A DNA stretch of 64,000 nucleotides from the NCBI GenBank assembly GCA_965243205.1, contig CBDEUK010000002.1, positions 1,376,001 to 1,440,000 of the forward strand, given 5' to 3'. The position numbers and the translations under genes are program-made. Positions 39,574-50,773 of this stretch are shown piece after piece; positions within the stretch are counted from its first letter, which is position 1, and each line of letters begins with the position of its first letter. The notes under the pieces were generated by a model. It had not been told where the DNA came from. It was given only the letters and a program-made list of their open reading frames with translations, and ran no database searches. Source of the stretch: Gammaproteobacteria bacterium (GTDB taxonomy: Bacteria; Pseudomonadota; Gammaproteobacteria; Eutrophobiales; Eutrophobiaceae).

Positions 39574-40974
39574 TTAAACCGCCATATCCAATTCTTTGAT
39601 CTTACGTGTCAGAGTATTTCTTCCCCAACCTAATAACTTCGCTGCATCTTGGCGTCGACCACCAGTTTTTTGTAAGGCGACATCAATCATAATTTTTTCA
39701 AACATAGGCACTGCTTCAGACAATATATCGGAATTACCTTTCGATAAACTTTGCTCTACCCAACGACGTAAGCCACTTTGCCAATCACCATCTTCGGTCC
39801 TAGTTTGTTCATGATCTTTTAATTCTGGTGGTAAGTCTTCGATATGAATCTCATGTCCAGAAGCCATTACTGTTATCCAACGACAAAAGTTCTCTAACTG
39901 TCTGACATTACCTGGCCACTCTAATGCATTTAAAAATTCCTGAGTCTCCGGCATGATCATTTTAGAATCGATCTTTAATTCATTCGCTGATGCACGTAAA
40001 AAATGATCAGTTAATTCAGAGATATCTTCTCGACGTTCGCGTAATGGTGGTACATGTACACGAATAACATTCAAACGATGAAATAAATCTTCTCTAAACT
40101 CACCTGAATTAACACGGTTTTCTAAATTTTGATGAGTCGCTGCAATGATTCGCACATCCGAACGTATTGGCATATGCCCACCAACTCGATAAAACTCACC
40201 ATCCGCCAACACACGCAGTAAACGAGTTTGTAAATCCGCAGGCATATCACCGATTTCATCTAAAAATAGTGTTCCGCCATTGGCTTGTTGAAAACGACCA
40301 ACCCTTTGGCTCGTCGCGCCTGTAAATGCACCTTTTTCATGACCAAACAATTCAGATTCTAATAATTCTTTAGGAATCGCTGCAGTATTTAATGCTATGA
40401 ATGGGTTTTCCGCACGTGGACTGTGTTGATGTAAGGCCTTTGCGACTAATTCTTTTCCAGTACCAGATTCACCTGTAATCAGAACCGTTAAGTTTGAACT
40501 GGATAATCGGCCTATTGCTCTGAATACCTCTTGCATTGCTGGCGCTGAACCTAAGATTTCCTTATCAGTATCATCACTTTTTTTGGGCAAACTGGTTTCT
40601 ATAAGTTCACGTTCTGCTAAGGCTCTTTGTACAAGGTTAACTAATTCATCAATATCAAATGGTTTAGAAAGATATTCGAACGCACCACCTTGAAATGCCG
40701 AGACCGCTCTATCTAAATCGGAATACGCAGTCATGATGATGACTGGTACATTTGGAGCCATATCTTTAATTTGACCTAATAATTCAATGCCATCGGTATC
40801 AGGCATGCGAATATCAGAGATAATCGCTTGCGGGCAGCTACTTTTAAGTTGTTCTAAAACATGGTTACCATTCTCAAAACTCATAGTCTTTATTTCAGCC
40901 TTTTCGAGGGCTTTTTCTAATACCCAGCGAATTGACCGATCATCATCAACGACCCAAACTTCCTGCTTACTCAT
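39574..40974 (-). CDS. glnG: Nitrogen regulation response regulator NtrC
   Basis: VVDDDRSIRW, GESGTGKE, GAFTGA, LGWGRNTLTRK helix-turn-helix; start ATG 40974 (MSKQEV). Confidence 0.96.
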   Translation of the reverse strand: MSKQEVWVVDDDRSIRWVLEKALEKAEIKTMSFENGNHVLEQLKSSCPQAIISDIRMPDTDGIELLGQIKDMAPNVPVIIMTAYSDLDRAVSAFQGGAFEYLSKPFDIDELVNLVQRALAERELIETSLPKKSDDTDKEILGSAPAMQEVFRAIGRLSSSNLTVLITGESGTGKELVAKALHQHSPRAENPFIALNTAAIPKELLESELFGHEKGAFTGATSQRVGRFQQANGGTLFLDEIGDMPADLQTRLLRVLADGEFYRVGGHMPIRSDVRIIAATHQNLENRVNSGEFREDLFHRLNVIRVHVPPLRERREDISELTDHFLRASANELKIDSKMIMPETQEFLNALEWPGNVRQLENFCRWITVMASGHEIHIEDLPPELKDHEQTRTEDGDWQSGLRRWVEQSLSKGNSDILSEAVPMFEKIMIDVALQKTGGRRQDAAKLLGWGRNTLTRKIKELDMAV

Positions 40975-42037
40975 CTGTTGAATCTCTCCATGGAATGAGG
41001 ACGGTGAAAGTGGTTTTATGTTGGTTGCGATTGTATTCAATGATTCCTCCATGCTTTTGTACAAGCGATTGGGCGATTGGAAGTCCAAGACCAGTGCCCT
41101 CTGCTCGGGTAGTGATCATTGGGTAAAAAATTCTATCAACAAGGTTTTCATCTACGCCTGGGCCATCATCGATAATGTCTATTCTGATGCAAAGTTTATG
41201 CAATTGATGTGCGATAGTGACTTTATGCGTAGCCCTGGTTTTTATAATGATTTGGCCTTGATTATTAACAGCCTGATTAGCGTTACGTAGTAAATTTAAA
41301 AATACTTGCACCAAACTTTCCCGATCGACAAATATTTCGGGCAAACTTGGATCATAATCAGAGATAAACTGACTACTGATATCTTTCTCTGCATGAAGCA
41401 AATGCAGTACATATTGTAATATTTCGTGAATATTCTCTTCAGCAAATGAAAGTTCTTTATCCGGCGTTAAAATTTTATCGACTAAGTTACGTAACCTATC
41501 GGCTTCATTGATAACAATATCGGTATACTCTTTCAGCCCATCTTCTTCTAACTCTTGCCTTAACAATTGCGCAGCACCACGAATACCACCCAGTGGATTC
41601 TTAATTTCATGAGCTAATGCCCTGCCCAGTTCTTTCGTGGTTAAATTTTGAGAAATCAATGTTTCCTCACGAGCAATTCGGTTATAAAAATTACTATTCG
41701 TCATCTCGACCAACACATGTTTGCCTGACTTTTTAACGTTTATAGGCGTAAAGACACAGTCAACTGTAATCTTTTTCTCATTCAACAATTCAATTTCCAT
41801 AGCCCACTCGGAGTACGGAGAACCTGTTTCAAACGACCGTTGTAGTAATCCAGAAAATGCATTCTTTCCAGGAATGATGTGTTCAACTTTCATCCCTTTC
41901 ATCTGGCGCTGACTAACAGACAGCAAATCTTCTGCAGCAGCATTCATGAGGCCTAGACGAAATGCTTCATCAAATAACAACACAGCGGTTGTTAGATGCT
42001 CGCCAACTACTCCTGCTAAAGCCCCAGAATTAAACAT
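40967..42037 (-). CDS. glnL: Nitrogen regulation sensor kinase NtrB
   Basis: PAS domain, LAHEIKNPLGGIRGAAQLL, DYDPSLP, DDGPG, GTGLGL. Confidence 0.95.
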   Translation of the reverse strand: MFNSGALAGVVGEHLTTAVLLFDEAFRLGLMNAAAEDLLSVSQRQMKGMKVEHIIPGKNAFSGLLQRSFETGSPYSEWAMEIELLNEKKITVDCVFTPINVKKSGKHVLVEMTNSNFYNRIAREETLISQNLTTKELGRALAHEIKNPLGGIRGAAQLLRQELEEDGLKEYTDIVINEADRLRNLVDKILTPDKELSFAEENIHEILQYVLHLLHAEKDISSQFISDYDPSLPEIFVDRESLVQVFLNLLRNANQAVNNQGQIIIKTRATHKVTIAHQLHKLCIRIDIIDDGPGVDENLVDRIFYPMITTRAEGTGLGLPIAQSLVQKHGGIIEYNRNQHKTTFTVLIPWRDSTDE

Positions 42038-42051
42038 AACTCATATATTAT

Positions 42052-42068
42052 TGCACCAAATTAGTGCG
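42052..42068. promoter_or_regulatory. NtrC binding site (autorepression of ntrBC)
   Basis: TGCACCAAATTAGTGCG matches TGCAC-N7-GTGCA, 14 bp upstream of the ntrB start. Confidence 0.8.
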
Positions 42069-42230: not shown

Positions 42231-42812
42231 TTAGTTGGTGGGGCGATTAATGATTGAAATGCGCTGTAAATGCACAGTAACACTATTGGATTCAAAGATA
42301 CTTTTACCAGCAGCAGATTTAATTTTAGCTTGTAAGGTGTGAGTACCACGATCTACATTTGCTAAATCGAAAGATAATTGACGACCGCTTGCTACTTCAG
42401 CTCCGTCCATATACAACGCCACAGTATCATTACCACGCAACTCAGGCTCCAACGTTAATAATATTGTCATTGCCCCTGTATTTTCTCGAATATTTTCATC
42501 GTTTTTAGGACTCACAATGCTGAAATTATTGTATTTTGGTAATTCTTTTATCGTATTGGATGCAGAGCCAGCAGGAGCTGCACCGACATTTTCTCTAGGC
42601 ACTGTTTGAATATCTTGAATGATAATTTTTTCTGCATTCTTCGATGGTTGATCAGAAAACACAGGATTACCGTCTTTATCACGAGTGACAAAGATCTCAG
42701 TAGCAATAGCGTTGATTGATAGAGAGACAGCAATGATAGATAGACCAATACAACAAATACCTTTGTTAAATCGTGTTTTCATAAATGCTTTGTCTCTGCT
42801 ATTTGAATTCAT
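42231..42812 (-). CDS. DUF4124 domain exported protein
   Basis: Signal peptide, RDKDGNPVFSDQP, Ig-like C-terminus (NVDRGTHTL); this family commonly lies between glnA and ntrB. Confidence 0.8.
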   Translation of the reverse strand: MNSNSRDKAFMKTRFNKGICCIGLSIIAVSLSINAIATEIFVTRDKDGNPVFSDQPSKNAEKIIIQDIQTVPRENVGAAPAGSASNTIKELPKYNNFSIVSPKNDENIRENTGAMTILLTLEPELRGNDTVALYMDGAEVASGRQLSFDLANVDRGTHTLQAKIKSAAGKSIFESNSVTVHLQRISIINRPTN

Positions 42813-42998: not shown

Positions 42999-43952
42999 GT
43001 GACGCGTTTTCCAGAACAGCCAAATGATGATTATGCTTTAATCTACCTGGAAAATACTGACCAAGAACTACCGGAAAAACCCAATCCAAATTTACGCTAT
43101 GCATATTTCAAAACCATAGCGCGTGGTGGGAAGGCCATTATCCAATCTTGCAAAGACATGTATCTTTCTAGAACGGTCTGTTACAAAACACTCAAACCTG
43201 AATTTGCCGATGACCCCATAGAGAAAAAACGCTTTTTAAGGGAAGCTCGTGTCAGTGCAATGTTGCAACATCCAAATACGATTCCAACCTATGAACTGGG
43301 CCGTGATAGTAAGGGGCATTATTACTTCACAATGAAATTAGTTCATGGTTATACATTAAGAGAAATCCTCGATTACCGCGAACGTTACGACTTAAGTCAA
43401 TTAATCAATGTTATTACGCAAATCGCTCAAGCATTAGACTATGCACATAGCCACCGAGTTATCCATCGAGATATTAAACCAGAAAATATTTTAGTTGGTC
43501 CATTTGGAGAAGTAGTACTAATGGATTGGGGCTTAGCCAAAGTTTGGAACCCTGATGGAACCAGTCCAGAACCTGAAAGAAAACCAAATTTAACATCCAA
43601 CGTTAAAATTTCTTCGATGACCGATACTGAAAATCTTCAAGGTACGATTTCTTATATGTCACCTGAACAATTGCGTCGAGACCCTGATATAGACTTCGCT
43701 ACTGACATATACAGTTTAGGCACGGTGCTCTATGAAGTGTTAGCCGGGAAACTACCATTTGAAGGACAAACAATCAGTGAATTAAGTAAACAAATACTCG
43801 AAGATAAACCTGCAAAACCGTCGGAGGTAACCACTGCTAACGTTCCAAAGTTATTAGAACAAATAGTGATGCAGTGCATTCAGAAAGAAAGCGATAATCG
43901 TTTTAATAGCTGTGCAGAAATAATTCGCATGTTAGAAGAAGATTGGAAGTAA
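42999..43952 (+). CDS. Soluble Hanks-type serine/threonine protein kinase
   Basis: ARGG loop, CYK, FLREAR, HRDIKPEN, DWG, GTISYMSPEQ, DIYSLG; no transmembrane or sensor domain. Confidence 0.92.
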   Translation: MTRFPEQPNDDYALIYLENTDQELPEKPNPNLRYAYFKTIARGGKAIIQSCKDMYLSRTVCYKTLKPEFADDPIEKKRFLREARVSAMLQHPNTIPTYELGRDSKGHYYFTMKLVHGYTLREILDYRERYDLSQLINVITQIAQALDYAHSHRVIHRDIKPENILVGPFGEVVLMDWGLAKVWNPDGTSPEPERKPNLTSNVKISSMTDTENLQGTISYMSPEQLRRDPDIDFATDIYSLGTVLYEVLAGKLPFEGQTISELSKQILEDKPAKPSEVTTANVPKLLEQIVMQCIQKESDNRFNSCAEIIRMLEEDWK

Positions 43953-43953
43953 A

Positions 43954-43970
43954 CGCACTATTGTTGTGCG
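43954..43970. promoter_or_regulatory. NtrC enhancer site 1 upstream of glnII
   Basis: CGCACTATTGTTGTGCG (GCAC-N7-GTGC). Confidence 0.75.
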
Positions 43971-43995
43971 TTTTTATCCTTTGATTTAGCATATA

Positions 43996-44012
43996 AGCAC
44001 TGTATTTGTGCA
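43996..44012. promoter_or_regulatory. NtrC enhancer site 2 upstream of glnII
   Basis: AGCACTGTATTTGTGCA (GCAC-N7-GTGC), 42 bp from site 1. Confidence 0.75.
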
Positions 44013-44088
44013 TTATTATTTTTTTTACAAATATTTCTACTCAAATCGTACGTTCATAGTCTAAATACAATATATATAAATTAAAATA

Positions 44089-44101
44089 TAACCTATTGAT
44101 T
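44089..44101 (-). promoter_or_regulatory. IHF binding site
   Basis: Minus strand AATCAATAGGTTA matches WATCAANNNNTTR, between the enhancer and the sigma54 promoter. Confidence 0.65.
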
Positions 44102-44174
44102 TTTAAAAACTATAACCACTACTGACCAATTCTATTTTATTTCCCTAGCCATAATATATAGACTATGCCGCGAC

Positions 44175-44190
44175 TGGAACGCATATTGCT
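44175..44190 (+). promoter_or_regulatory. Sigma54 (-24/-12) promoter of glnII
   Basis: TGGAACGCATATTGCT (GG-N10-GC). Confidence 0.8.
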
Positions 44191-44260
44191 GAATAAGTCG
44201 CACAATTGCGGTTCAAACCTAAAGAAAATACCAACAAAGAGTGGAGGATAATTAAATATC

Positions 44261-45274
44261 ATGAAAAGCAAGTTGGAATATATTTGGCTTGATGGGTACA
44301 AGCCTACTCAAAGTCTTCGCAGCAAAACCATGGTTAGAGAAGATTTCAGCGGCAAATTAGAAGATTGCCCAATGTGGTCATTTGACGGTAGCTCGACAGA
44401 ACAAGCTGAAGGCGGTAGTTCAGATTGTTTATTAAAACCAGTTATGTGTGTCCCAGATCCAGACCGTAAAAACGGTTATCTTGTTATGACCGAGGTATTG
44501 AACGCAGACGGTACTCCACACGAATCAAATGGCCGTGCGACCATTGACGAAGCTGACGACGACGATGATTTCTGGTTTGGTTTCGAACAAGAATACTTCT
44601 TATGGGATCCTGTTACAGATGTACCTCCTGGCTTCCCTGCAGGCGGTTTCCCACGTCCACAAGGCCCTTACTATTGTTCAGTCGGTGGTAAAAACGCTTA
44701 TGGCCGTGAAGTCATCGAAGAACATTTGGATATCTGTTTAGAAGCTGGCTTAAACGTTGAAGGTATCAACGCTGAGGTTGCAGCAGGTCAATGGGAATTC
44801 CAAGTATTCGCGAAAGGCGCTAAACGTGCTGGTGACGAAACTTGGTTAGGTCGTTATTTCCTAGAACGTACTGCCGAAAAATATGGCTTAGCCATCGAAT
44901 GGCATCCTAAACCACTAGGTGATACTGACTGGAACGGTTCTGGTATGCATGCAAACTTCTCAAACGGCGCAATGCGTGAATCTGGTAAAGAAGAAACCTT
45001 CACTAAAATTTGCGATGAGTTTGGTAAGAACATTGAACGTCATATCAGTGTTTATGGCGCTGAAAATGACCAACGTTTAACTGGTGCACACGAAACTCAA
45101 TCAATCGATCAATTCAGTTACGGTGTTTCTGACCGTGGTGCTTCTATCCGTATCCCAGTAGGTACAGTTGAAGACGGTTGGAAAGGTCGTTTAGAAGATC
45201 GTCGTCCTGCTTCTAACGCTGATCCATACAAAGTGGCAGCAGCGATTGTGAAAACAACTAAAGAAGCTGGCTAA
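44261..45274 (+). CDS. glnII: Glutamine synthetase type II
   Basis: 337 aa; LEYIWLDG, LRSKT, WSFDGSST.QA, QGPYYC.VG, GINAEV..GQWEFQ, DWNGSGMH, RLTGAHET, GVSDRGASIRIP, EDRRPASNADPY are all GSII signatures. Confidence 0.93.
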   Translation: MKSKLEYIWLDGYKPTQSLRSKTMVREDFSGKLEDCPMWSFDGSSTEQAEGGSSDCLLKPVMCVPDPDRKNGYLVMTEVLNADGTPHESNGRATIDEADDDDDFWFGFEQEYFLWDPVTDVPPGFPAGGFPRPQGPYYCSVGGKNAYGREVIEEHLDICLEAGLNVEGINAEVAAGQWEFQVFAKGAKRAGDETWLGRYFLERTAEKYGLAIEWHPKPLGDTDWNGSGMHANFSNGAMRESGKEETFTKICDEFGKNIERHISVYGAENDQRLTGAHETQSIDQFSYGVSDRGASIRIPVGTVEDGWKGRLEDRRPASNADPYKVAAAIVKTTKEAG

Positions 45275-47500: not shown

Positions 47501-49573
47501 TTATTTTTGCTTATGCTTGAATAAAAATAATAGAGATGAGATAAATAACCAAGCTGCCGCAGGCAATGGAACATTAGAAGCAGGAGTTAGTAAAACAACT
47601 TTTTCCTCATATTCTCCCTCAACACCAATCACTAAAATCTGGCCTCGCTCATTCGCTAGATAAGCCTCTTTTAGATAATCCAAATCGATTTCACCTAATT
47701 CATCCCTCAATAATGTACCTAAATCTACAAAGCCATTTTCTACTGTAAAGGCGAAACCTCTTCCATCTAAATATGTGTCGTCTTGCCCCCATAGTATATA
47801 AACCCCGAGAGCTAAGCCATCATCATCTAAATAATAAATTTCACTTTCAGTAAAACCGTCTGAACGTAAAGATACATCAAATGAAAATGTCTGATCGGTA
47901 TTTGAATCATAAAACCAGGCAACTTGGCCATTTTTTTCATTTCCATTATATTTTTGAGAAAGCCCAACGACCTGCCCTATTTCGTTTAAGTCAAAAACTC
48001 GACTGTTTTGTCTTCCATCTGTTCCAGTAAATTCATTTCCAGTTAACCCAATTTGAATAGTGCCAACGCCATTAAATAACCATGAATCAGTATCATTTTG
48101 GTATTCACCAGTAAAACGGTCGGAAAGACCAATGACGTATCCTTGATTATTGATATCGACTACTTCTGAATTACGTTCTCCTTGGCTACTGGTATGCTCA
48201 CTATCAACTAAACCTATTTGTTTTGTTTCAGAACCATCATAAAACCATGTATCTCTGCCTAGAAAATCTTGTTGATTAAAGCGCATAGAATCTCCAGTTG
48301 CCTGTCCTTGGTCATTGAGCATTTTTGCTTCACTAAATTGAACACCATATTCATCGGTATATTCTTCTCCTATGAAACCTAAACGAACAGTTTTATCGCC
48401 ATCATAAACCCAGGCACTCTGACCTCTATGCTCTACTATATCTGGAGTTCCAGCGCCGCTAACAAGGTTATAATGTTCTGAGCCTCCAATAACCTGACCA
48501 TTTTTATTAATTGCCTTTTTGTCACCATTTAGTGGAAATAAAATCTCACTATATTGCCTGCTCTCATTGCTTGTGTGGTATGCATCGGTCAAACCCATTT
48601 GAGTGTAATTTCCTTGATCGTATAACCAAGCTACTTGGCCCGCATCAAATTGATTCAAACGAGTAGATTCTCCAATCACCTGTCCTGCTTCATTGATTGA
48701 AAACACTCTACTTTGGGTTTCGCCATTGACATCTTCAAATTCTGAACCATTAAGCCCAAGTGCTATTGTCTGATTACCATCATATATCCAAGCATTCGTT
48801 CCATCACGAAAATCACGCAATGAAAAGTCGTCTGTTTTAAACCTATCGGAATTTCCTATAATAGCGCCTTGAGAATTATAATCGTTCCATGTTGAATTCT
48901 GATAGCCATCACTTGCTCGAGTATGCCTGTCGCCTGTAAATCCTAACTTTTTAGTTTCAATTCCATTGTAAGCCCATACACTATAACCATTATCATTCAT
49001 CCCATTAAATCGAGTTGAACTACCTAATACATGAGAAGAACCTACAATTATTTGAGCTTCACTGTATTCAAAACCATCAGATCTTGTGTATTCATCACTA
49101 GTAAGACCTACTTCTCTTGTTTGGTTGTCATGATAAACCCAAGCGTGCTGACCATGTGATGTTGTAGTACCTGATACATATCTTTCAGAAACGCCTGCTA
49201 CCCATCCTTCATTGTTTAGAGCAAAAGCACTGCTTGATTGATAGCCGTTTATATCCGTATATTCTGTGCCTATCAGTCCAACCTGTTTCGTACTGACGCC
49301 ATCATAAAACCAAGCACTTTCTTTAGTACTTTCATTTGTGATTGGATCTTCGAAAAAAGTACGTCCAATTACCTGGCCACTATTGTTGAGAGGCTTGGGG
49401 CCAGAAAAAGCAGTAACTAAAGGCACATAGCTAAATACTGGAATATTTTGACCATCACCTTCTAATCCAAGAATTTGGATATCGTAATTTTCGAATAAAT
49501 CGGCGGCTTGAGTTGAAAAAACAGCAGAAGCTAAAATAATTGAAATAAATAATCTTTTTGATAATACGTCCAT
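47501..49573 (-). CDS. Secreted repeat (beta-propeller-like) protein with VPLPA-CTERM/PEP-CTERM sorting signal
   Basis: Signal peptide; about 9 repeats of roughly 55-64 aa; C-terminal VPLPAAAWLFISSLLFLFKHKQK. Confidence 0.85.
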   Translation of the reverse strand: MDVLSKRLFISIILASAVFSTQAADLFENYDIQILGLEGDGQNIPVFSYVPLVTAFSGPKPLNNSGQVIGRTFFEDPITNESTKESAWFYDGVSTKQVGLIGTEYTDINGYQSSSAFALNNEGWVAGVSERYVSGTTTSHGQHAWVYHDNQTREVGLTSDEYTRSDGFEYSEAQIIVGSSHVLGSSTRFNGMNDNGYSVWAYNGIETKKLGFTGDRHTRASDGYQNSTWNDYNSQGAIIGNSDRFKTDDFSLRDFRDGTNAWIYDGNQTIALGLNGSEFEDVNGETQSRVFSINEAGQVIGESTRLNQFDAGQVAWLYDQGNYTQMGLTDAYHTSNESRQYSEILFPLNGDKKAINKNGQVIGGSEHYNLVSGAGTPDIVEHRGQSAWVYDGDKTVRLGFIGEEYTDEYGVQFSEAKMLNDQGQATGDSMRFNQQDFLGRDTWFYDGSETKQIGLVDSEHTSSQGERNSEVVDINNQGYVIGLSDRFTGEYQNDTDSWLFNGVGTIQIGLTGNEFTGTDGRQNSRVFDLNEIGQVVGLSQKYNGNEKNGQVAWFYDSNTDQTFSFDVSLRSDGFTESEIYYLDDDGLALGVYILWGQDDTYLDGRGFAFTVENGFVDLGTLLRDELGEIDLDYLKEAYLANERGQILVIGVEGEYEEKVVLLTPASNVPLPAAAWLFISSLLFLFKHKQK

Positions 49574-49650: not shown

Positions 49651-50412
49651 TTAACTAACAACAGGAAAAACTCTGCCCACTAAAAATTCTTTTTTGGAGA
49701 AGTGAAACATGGTTTGTTCATTATCTTTTCGATTATTCAAAATTTTAAAGCTCACTGTTTCTTTAGAAGTCATACAAAATAAACGGCGTTTATTTTGAGG
49801 TAGCTTTTTCTTTAACGCCTTAGGTTTGGTAATGGCTAAATTAAAGCCTTTATCAGGACAACGTGCTGATTCAAATCGAATGCCATCGCAATTATTCTCT
49901 CGTAGATATGTCCCGACTTGTTGCGTCAGTTCATAGCTATTTTTGGAGATCATATCTTTACGACGTTTTTTAAATGGTGGCTTAGTAACATCCACTGCTA
50001 GAGAACATTTATAGGCTGCTTGAAATGCTGTGTGTTGAGTTTGCAATGGATTAGGCGGGGCTTTGCTCATACCTTGCCAGAAAAGAAAACGATAATAAGC
50101 AACTTCAGCTAATACTGTATTAAACGTTTCAGAACCGTAAAAAATACCGCGTTCATTTGCGGTTCCAAAACGCGAGCCCCATCGCAACGGCGGGTAACGA
50201 AACGGTGTTGATAATAAATAATCCAGACCTTTTGTGTCTTCTGGCTGCGAAGGTTTACAACCATCTAACAACTGTTCTAAAACATCTTGTTCCTCAATAT
50301 TATCGACCAAACTCATAGTAGCAATTTGTTCTTGGCTTTCTACCACACGCCAAATATCGCCTTGAAGAATCTCAGTATTAATAGAGCCCCAAGACGAGTT
50401 AAATCTTGCCAC
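49651..50412 (-). CDS. RES-domain toxin (MbcT/ParT-like)
   Basis: WRVVESQ (R), TPFRYPP, GSRFG, AEVAYYR (E), FESAR (S); overlaps the upstream antitoxin gene by 14 nt. Confidence 0.88.
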   Translation of the reverse strand: MARFNSSWGSINTEILQGDIWRVVESQEQIATMSLVDNIEEQDVLEQLLDGCKPSQPEDTKGLDYLLSTPFRYPPLRWGSRFGTANERGIFYGSETFNTVLAEVAYYRFLFWQGMSKAPPNPLQTQHTAFQAAYKCSLAVDVTKPPFKKRRKDMISKNSYELTQQVGTYLRENNCDGIRFESARCPDKGFNLAITKPKALKKKLPQNKRRLFCMTSKETVSFKILNNRKDNEQTMFHFSKKEFLVGRVFPVVS

Positions 50413-50773
50413 GAATACCGTCCAGGTATCTGGAAACGCTCATGAGTCCTTCCAAGCTTTGAACTTGTTCAATAGGAATTCCGCCTGTGTGCAAATTTTT
50501 GGTATGAAACCAATGTTGCATGGCTTGTTCATCACCACCCATCAAAGCATGCAAAGCACGATAGCAACGGATCAATACCAAGGCTAATTCACCATGTTTG
50601 CTATCGGCTTTTAAACCATTAGCGCGGTATAAACTGCTTTTATTGCGACCCACAATAGCTCCGAGAACTTCAGGTGCAATATCCAAAGCCTTGCCAACAT
50701 TCATTAAAGCCTTGCGAACAACACTATCTTGATCAACTGCAGTCGTATTTTTATTGAGGGCTTGAGTAGCCAT
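50399..50773 (-). CDS. Xre/MbcA/ParS-family antitoxin
   Basis: N-terminal HTH-like region, C-terminal 'YRALHALMGG...WFHTKN...GGIP...GL..V..YLDGIRG'. Confidence 0.88.
   Translation of the reverse strand: MATQALNKNTTAVDQDSVVRKALMNVGKALDIAPEVLGAIVGRNKSSLYRANGLKADSKHGELALVLIRCYRALHALMGGDEQAMQHWFHTKNLHTGGIPIEQVQSLEGLMSVSRYLDGIRGKI

Follow-up and report, generated by a model that had tools for sequence, protein, structure and literature searches.

Linkage of a Hanks-type kinase gene to one clade of type II glutamine synthetase and its possible meaning for nitrogen control

The stretch of gammaproteobacterial DNA analyzed here, called the window at its full length of 64 kb (contig CBDEUK010000002.1 of assembly GCA_965243205.1), carries on its plus strand a gene for a Hanks-type Ser/Thr kinase of 317 amino acids with a GTG start (42999-43952), followed by glnII (44261-45274), which encodes a type II glutamine synthetase (GSII) of 337 amino acids. 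The kinase gene was identified by open reading frame (ORF) calling and Pfam, and glnII by the same means and NCBIfam. A first-pass annotation of this DNA had described the two genes as co-oriented neighbors inside the ntr locus, which is confirmed, and had proposed that the kinase controls GSII as a possible replacement for the adenylylation carried out by GlnE. Comparison with public genomes showed that the kinase and the clade of GSII found here (clade A) are inherited together in many lineages, with their genes close to each other in every relative orientation.

Genes and control elements of the kinase-glnII locus

The kinase translation contains ARGGKAII, VCYKTLK, HRDIKPEN, DWG and SPE, and the motifs reported earlier for it, including the catalytic Lys and the atypical glycine loop (ARGGKAII), are all present. 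Pfam Pkinase (PF00069) matches residues 36-306 (1.4e-44, 152.9 bits with a cut-off of 31.7, profile positions 3-255 of 263). Since the catalytic domain spans these residues out of 317, there is no space for a sensor or membrane domain, and the earlier description of a sensor-less kinase holds. In the alignment of 37 orthologues, K63, E82, H156-R157-D158, N163, D176-W177-G178 and S221-P222-E223 are invariant (37/37). From their motif positions, we take K63 to be the VAIK Lys, E82 the alphaC Glu, D158 the HRD Asp, N163 the catalytic-loop Asn, D176 the DFG Asp and E223 the APE Glu. The glycine loop departs from the usual pattern solely at its first Gly, which has become Ala, and G43-G44 never vary; T208 and T216 of the activation segment are almost invariant. 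The 32-residue N-terminal extension is conserved and specific to the family, with D21, R33 and Y34 invariant.

The AlphaFold model of the kinase (predicted local distance difference test, 85.3; predicted template modeling score, 0.84) is weak only at residues 1-10 and at an insert in the activation loop (residues 192-213), which is also variable among orthologues. The nearest solved structures are PknB kinase domains, with about 30% identity. The protein thus counts among the common PknB-like Hanks kinases of bacteria, and a eukaryotic graft onto the Ntr system is not demonstrable from it. The model of the Stk1/PknB kinases with PASTA domains (NF033483) did not reach its cut-off (252.4 versus 450 bits); it matches over profile positions 8-266 of 563, and the kinase ends at residue 317. 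Judging from these features, the protein is a predicted catalytically competent kinase, consisting of a full Hanks catalytic domain without any other domain.

At 90% identity, the kinase family falls into 2049 or more protein clusters (E ≤ 1e-60). Among the 120 clusters listed, lengths range from 287 to 350 amino acids, most of them 315-327, and the source names, where given, are only generic. Two longer kinase frames of 649 and 675 amino acids, in two genomes, were considered as fusions and rejected, as they look like stop-free upstream extensions among overlapping ORFs.

Regarding the glutamine synthetase, both Pfam domains, Gln-synt_N and Gln-synt_C, score above their cut-offs (44.6 and 73.1 bits). 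The NCBIfam model GlnII (NF041605) aligns end to end (1-333 on 1-328 of 333) with 390.2 bits, under its equivalog cut-off of 500 bits. Solved GSII structures are matched at 1.3e-95 (4bax, residues 3-332) and 3.3e-95 (3fky). The GSI (type I) models align only up to their positions 370 (of 462) and 376 (of 469); the adenylylation loop (Tyr397 in E. coli numbering) presumably falls past this point, in agreement with the earlier statement that this GSII is devoid of the GSI tyrosine loop. Glutamine synthetase motif positions E109, E111, E172, E179, H230, R292, R297 and E312-R315 are invariant in 39 GSII sequences.

In the phylogenetic tree, the kinase-linked GSIIs form a monophyletic group, clade A (59 tips, support 0.75, stem length 0.27), whose sisters are two kinase-less GSIIs with 56-58% identity. 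It is a divergent GSII subclade with 58 clade-specific positions, which include a short insertion in the N-terminal domain (29-36), an acidic stretch at about 97-101, one extra residue in front of DWNG and an extended C-terminus.

Between the two genes there are several putative control elements. An NtrC-like palindrome (GCAC-N7-GTGC, 43955-43969) comes right after the kinase stop codon (43950-43952), as had been noticed before, and a second copy, GCACTGTATTTGTGC, lies at 43997-44011 on the plus strand. The third one, given on the same strand at 42053-42067, is located upstream of ntrB, 16 bp from the start codon. Pattern search of the whole window found only these three sites, all at this locus, where 0.52 are expected, and none of 100 shuffled sequences reached three. 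Furthermore, the sigma-54-type pattern TGGNAC-N5-TTGCW has one match in the whole window, TGGAAC-N5-TTGCT at 44175-44190 on the plus strand, about 70 nt 5' of the glnII start codon. Close relatives keep the palindromes at equivalent positions, and eight of the public loci have the sigma-54-type promoter as well, at about -77 to -88. The first palindrome also serves as the stem of a terminator-like hairpin (43951-43973, plus strand), which is a caveat on its reading as an NtrC site.

Since tandem palindromes and a -24/-12 pattern precede glnII and a hairpin follows the kinase gene, glnII looks NtrC/sigma-54-driven and the kinase gene seems to be transcribed separately. The palindrome upstream of ntrB suggests autoregulation of ntrBC.

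The genes upstream of the pair are divergent from it, all on the minus strand: ntrC (39574-41088), encoding the sigma-54 activator NRI (TIGR01818, 734.5 bits); ntrB (40967-42037), encoding the nitrogen regulation sensor kinase NRII (NF008293, 306 bits with a cut-off of 240); and a gene for a DUF4124 protein (42231-42812; ORF call and Pfam). The ntrC ORF as listed starts at TTG, and since family models begin matching only at residues 39-44, the actual start is probably near 40974. In two related loci (L020 and L021), DUF4124 and the kinase are separated by a GSI gene, which is divergent from the kinase. A search of the 186-bp spacer between DUF4124 and the kinase with the GSI of a relative found no glnA remnant. 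By this comparison, the glnA gene that relatives have in this place is gone from the window's locus.

Downstream of glnII there are a methyltransferase gene and lysA, both on the minus strand. Further along this strand, a repeat-rich protein of 690 amino acids (47501-49573) has a signal-peptide-like N-terminus, three DUF3466 stretches and a hydrophobic C-terminal tail. It is followed by a type II toxin-antitoxin pair (49651-50773), formed by a RES-domain toxin of 253 amino acids and an overlapping Xre/MbcA/ParS-type antitoxin of 124 amino acids.

Co-occurrence and linkage of kinase, GSII and phosphatase

Four samples of genomes and loci were compared. The kinase-anchored loci are the best 80 of 255 public stretches encoding a relative of the kinase. 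The GSII-anchored loci are the best 80 of at least 590 encoding a relative of GSII, and here a kinase was counted at ≥ 45% identity within 3.5 kb. The third sample comprises 41 related genomes, and the fourth is an even, class-wide sample of 400 scored gammaproteobacterial genomes (one more was unscorable), in which a kinase orthologue was defined by E ≤ 1e-70.

Among the 41 relatives, six carry a kinase orthologue (64-73% identity), and in all six a GSII of 83-91% identity adjoins it; the other 35 have neither. The class-wide sample gave the same picture: 10 of the 400 genomes have a kinase orthologue (56-73% identity), and these are also the 10 with a GSII of 84% identity or more, the two genes lying no more than about 320 bp apart in every case. 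Three of these belong to the window's own family and seven to six other families. Distant GSIIs alone (47-61%) were found in 20 further genomes, none of which has a kinase orthologue.

GSII adjoins the kinase in 57 of the 80 kinase-anchored loci, with a median gap of 276 bp, and these include loci from metagenome-assembled genomes (MAGs) of Pirellulaceae and Myxococcota. All arrangements are represented: GSII then kinase in 27, kinase then GSII in 14, divergent in 11 and convergent in 5. Starting from GSII, the kinase is found within the distance considered in 30 of 80 loci. The first-pass annotation had made much depend on whether orthologues of the kinase are consistently linked to glnII, and these counts, together with the 10 out of 10 carriers in the class-wide sample, bear the linkage out.

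The association extends to genomes in which the two genes are apart. Where the kinase stands alone, a clade-A GSII of 81-89% identity was present elsewhere in all five genomes tested, and where GSII stands alone in gammaproteobacterial genomes, a kinase of 58-62% identity was present elsewhere in all five tested. Many genomes (15 of the public loci) have the clade-A GSII gene where glnA classically lies, just 5' of (DUF4124-)ntrB-ntrC, and in those tested the kinase is located elsewhere.

A partner phosphatase of the PP2C type, whose presence the first-pass annotation had thought worth checking, lies beside the kinase in 29 of the 80 kinase-anchored loci, convergent and downstream in 28 of them. 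GSII, kinase and PP2C occur all together in 20 of these 80, and PP2C is present in 10 of the 80 GSII-anchored loci. In the cultured strain Reinekea marinisedimentorum DSM 15388 (L149, 1413-6175), the genes for kinase, PP2C, GSII and GSI follow each other on one strand. The PP2C of this locus, placed between kinase and GSII, has about 32% identity to the convergent-type query, and the same placement is seen in five more loci (28-32% identity). As for the host genome, it is unusually kinase-rich for a small gammaproteobacterium, with 16 Hanks-kinase matches in 2.79 Mb, and at least three of these kinases are directly beside PP2C homologues (for instance, in regions C1:329323-334857, C1:370958-372540 and C2:1141244-1142818).

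The linkage could reflect nothing more than shared history, that is, a joint horizontal acquisition of two genes that have not yet been separated, the kinase having an unrelated function. Clade-A GSIIs are 77-91% identical across Gammaproteobacteria and MAGs of Myxococcota, Planctomycetota, Acidobacteriota and Acidimicrobiales, a level of identity across phyla that fits horizontal spread. The pairwise distances of kinase and GSII are correlated (Mantel r = 0.71 for 53 pairs, reached by none of 999 permutations), to which shared species history contributes and which co-transfer alone would also produce. What disfavors this explanation is that both genes are kept although they have been rearranged into each of the four orientations and sometimes even parted, as in 10 of 10 unlinked gammaproteobacterial genomes. 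Moreover, identities among the kinases have fallen to 52-73%, which makes the association an old one, and the PP2C genes acquired beside the kinase come in two types and two placements. We regard shared history as the sole cause as very unlikely.

The clade-A GSIIs of remote phyla deserve a separate comment. Sequences with 78-86% identity to the window's GSII come from MAGs labeled Acidimicrobiales, Acidobacteriota/Vicinamibacteraceae, Planctomycetota and Kuenenia (12 loci). Their presence there would mean either broad horizontal spread, very strong constraint on the protein or some binning contamination.

GSI, GlnE and nitrogen control in kinase carriers

The host genome (2.79 Mb in 2 contigs, rated 100% complete) encodes a single Gln-synt_C protein in a genome-wide search, which is the GSII described above. 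No GSI was found in it at E ≤ 1e-30 with the GSI model, and the GSI of a relative matches only GSII, with 30% identity. Likewise, there is no PF03710 match, and thus no sign of GlnE, in this complete assembly. With neither GSI nor GlnE in the genome, GSII is its only glutamine synthetase. The other elements of nitrogen control are present: two PII genes, GlnD (925 bits) and NtrBC.

The loss of GSI and GlnE is not general among carriers of the kinase. Of 11 carrier genomes tested, GSI scores above the model cut-off in six and GlnE is encoded by five of these six, whereas both are missing from the remaining five, which include the window's genome; three sister genera share this absence with it. 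In the window's family, the non-carriers have GlnE in 19 of 19 genomes and GSI above the cut-off in 17 of 19, the two exceptions being 89% and 83% complete. The loss of GSI and GlnE is accordingly enriched among kinase carriers in these genomes, yet it is not the rule and is a later event in some lineages. Since six of 11 carriers retain GSI and five GlnE, the kinase is a companion of clade-A GSII, with which it came, and its origin does not lie in a replacement of GlnE. The idea of such a replacement, proposed at first, is thus supported only in part and does not apply to the pair in general.

Genomes of the window's family encode GlnE in two neighboring frames of about 430-450 amino acids with one GlnE domain each (G007, C1:223403-225258; G003, C25:3424-5291), which could be a split glnE or the result of frameshifts. 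In remoter members of the class it is mostly one frame of about 950-1000 amino acids.

The retention of PII, GlnD and NtrBC in the host is one of the features that speak for a different role of the pair, in which GSII, bound to its substrate or product, would be the sensor or activator of the kinase, and the protein phosphorylated would be PII, NtrB, NtrC, GlnD or a metabolic enzyme. The kinase lacks a sensor domain of its own, and it is located in or beside ntr loci in several lineages (the window and three public loci, one of them with the order ntrB-ntrC-kinase). There are also precedents: the glutamine synthetase of B. subtilis signals to TnrA and GlnR, and the phosphorylation of cyanobacterial PII at Ser49 is undone by a PP2C. 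However, the phyletic tie of the kinase is to one clade of GSII and not to PII or NtrBC, which most kinase-less genomes also have; in fact, PII is found in 36 of the 41 relatives, versus six for the kinase. Besides, most kinase-GSII loci do not adjoin ntrBC. GSII as a sensor for the kinase is, in our opinion, unlikely, although it has a real share of the probability.

A putative switch on GSII and its relation to known systems

The pattern of co-inheritance and linkage is best read as a conserved functional module of kinase and GSII, in many genomes with PP2C included, which could act as a dedicated kinase/phosphatase switch on GSII. We give this reading a probability of roughly 0.5. In it, the kinase would phosphorylate GSII on Ser/Thr residues, with a quick change in the activity or stability of the enzyme, and PP2C would reverse the modification. 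NtrBC would then provide the slow, transcriptional control and the kinase the fast, covalent control of GSII, doing for this enzyme what adenylylation by GlnE does for GSI.

The kinase might also control GSII without any phosphotransfer to it, by stoichiometric binding that affects assembly, stability or localization, its own autophosphorylation and PP2C setting the degree of binding. The conserved N-terminal extension, with the invariant D21, R33 and Y34, could be a docking element, and the extreme conservation of clade-A GSII across phyla (76-91% identity) would be expected of a surface constrained by a partner. The catalytic residues of the kinase are nevertheless invariant in all 37 orthologues, which argues for real phosphotransfer, and control by binding seems to us quite improbable.

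Several observations weigh against a dedicated switch on GSII. Twenty-three of the 80 kinase-anchored loci have no GSII nearby (in two of them the contig ends beside the kinase), and 50 of the 80 GSII-anchored loci have no kinase nearby. In MAGs from outside the Gammaproteobacteria that carry this GSII, the kinase found is only 44-46% identical in two of five (Blastopirellula, 44%; Acidobacteria, 46%), and the other three, labeled Acidimicrobiales, Rhodospirillaceae and Thalassobius, gave no kinase at E ≤ 1e-50, with the caution that MAGs may be incomplete. Clade-A GSII can apparently exist, then, without the kinase. Moreover, the genomes are related and not independent, and the counts given above overstate the number of independent events.

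The window's own locus has no PP2C, and the partner phosphatase is in this sense missing from the very locus where the pair was first noticed; four distant homologues are encoded elsewhere in the genome, three with about 29-32% identity and one with 23-28%. Lastly, the conserved Ser, Thr and Tyr residues of clade-A GSII were compared between kinase carriers and five MAG loci without a kinase match, and no candidate phosphosite emerged, as the GSIIs of the five kinase-less loci keep nearly all of the conserved Ser/Thr. Only T333 differs in some sequences, being Val in one of the five kinase-less loci and in four of four distant-kinase lineages compared.

If a switch of this kind exists, it would be a third covalent switch of glutamine synthetase in bacteria, so far undescribed: a stand-alone Hanks kinase with PP2C, acting on one clade of GSII, spread horizontally as a unit and wholly displacing GSI and GlnE in some lineages, including this one. 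We put this broader picture forward tentatively, and as slightly more doubtful than the switch itself.

Ammonium enters biomass through glutamine synthetase, and adenylylation of GSI by GlnE is the textbook case of its fast control. To our knowledge, the post-translational control of bacterial GSII is so far unclear. A kinase, often with a phosphatase, whose inheritance follows one GSII clade through many Gammaproteobacteria, marine ones and others, and also outside this class is a concrete candidate for that control, and if this is true, it would be a rare bacterial case of a Hanks kinase that serves one metabolic enzyme alone. Full-text searches, which covered the articles proper, found no description tying GSII or glnII to a neighboring or dedicated Ser/Thr kinase, and the terms 'kinase' and 'phosphorylat' occur nowhere in the main text of two papers on GSII evolution (PMC2978018, PMC9310647). 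The GSII-kinase(-PP2C) module thus appears to be undescribed.

Among known systems, the one formed by GlnE and GSI shares with the switch proposed here a fast and reversible covalent control of glutamine synthetase, laid over NtrBC/sigma-54 transcription and exerted by a regulator dedicated to one enzyme. The chemistry and the enzyme families differ, with adenylylation of GSI on Tyr in one case and, as we propose, phosphorylation of GSII on Ser/Thr in the other, and GlnE and the kinase coexist in five of the 11 carriers. Closest in chemistry are plants and algae, whose GSII is phosphorylated and bound by 14-3-3 proteins, and which would share with the bacterial pair a type II enzyme under Ser/Thr phosphorylation. 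In contrast, the plant kinases are not known to be genetically dedicated to glutamine synthetase, and the kinase described here is PknB-like. As far as we know, no 14-3-3 protein is to be expected in bacteria.

A kinase, with its phosphatase, dedicated to one enzyme of central metabolism has a parallel in AceK, a single bifunctional kinase/phosphatase for isocitrate dehydrogenase that is encoded beside related metabolic genes and is unrelated to Hanks kinases. In the present case, kinase and PP2C are separate proteins, the kinase is of the Hanks type and the target is only proposed.

Hanks kinases have also been tied to the metabolism of glutamine and glutamate. According to a review (PMC6213207), PrkC of B. 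subtilis phosphorylates GlnA; PknG, which the review also treats, acts in connection with GarA/OdhI in glutamate metabolism in Actinobacteria. These kinases have in common with ours the PknB-like catalytic domain and the metabolic link, but they are multi-substrate enzymes that carry a sensor or membrane domain, and they are not known to be inherited together with a glutamine synthetase gene, whereas the kinase studied here is a kinase-only protein of about 317 amino acids.

On the side of the enzyme, a gammaproteobacterial clade named GSIIB is placed as sister to the GLN2 of green plants, with horizontal transfer inferred, by Ghoshroy et al. (2010, PMC2978018). By that description, GSIIB resembles clade A in being a bacterial GSII with a patchy distribution in Gammaproteobacteria, Planctomycetes, Actinobacteria and others.

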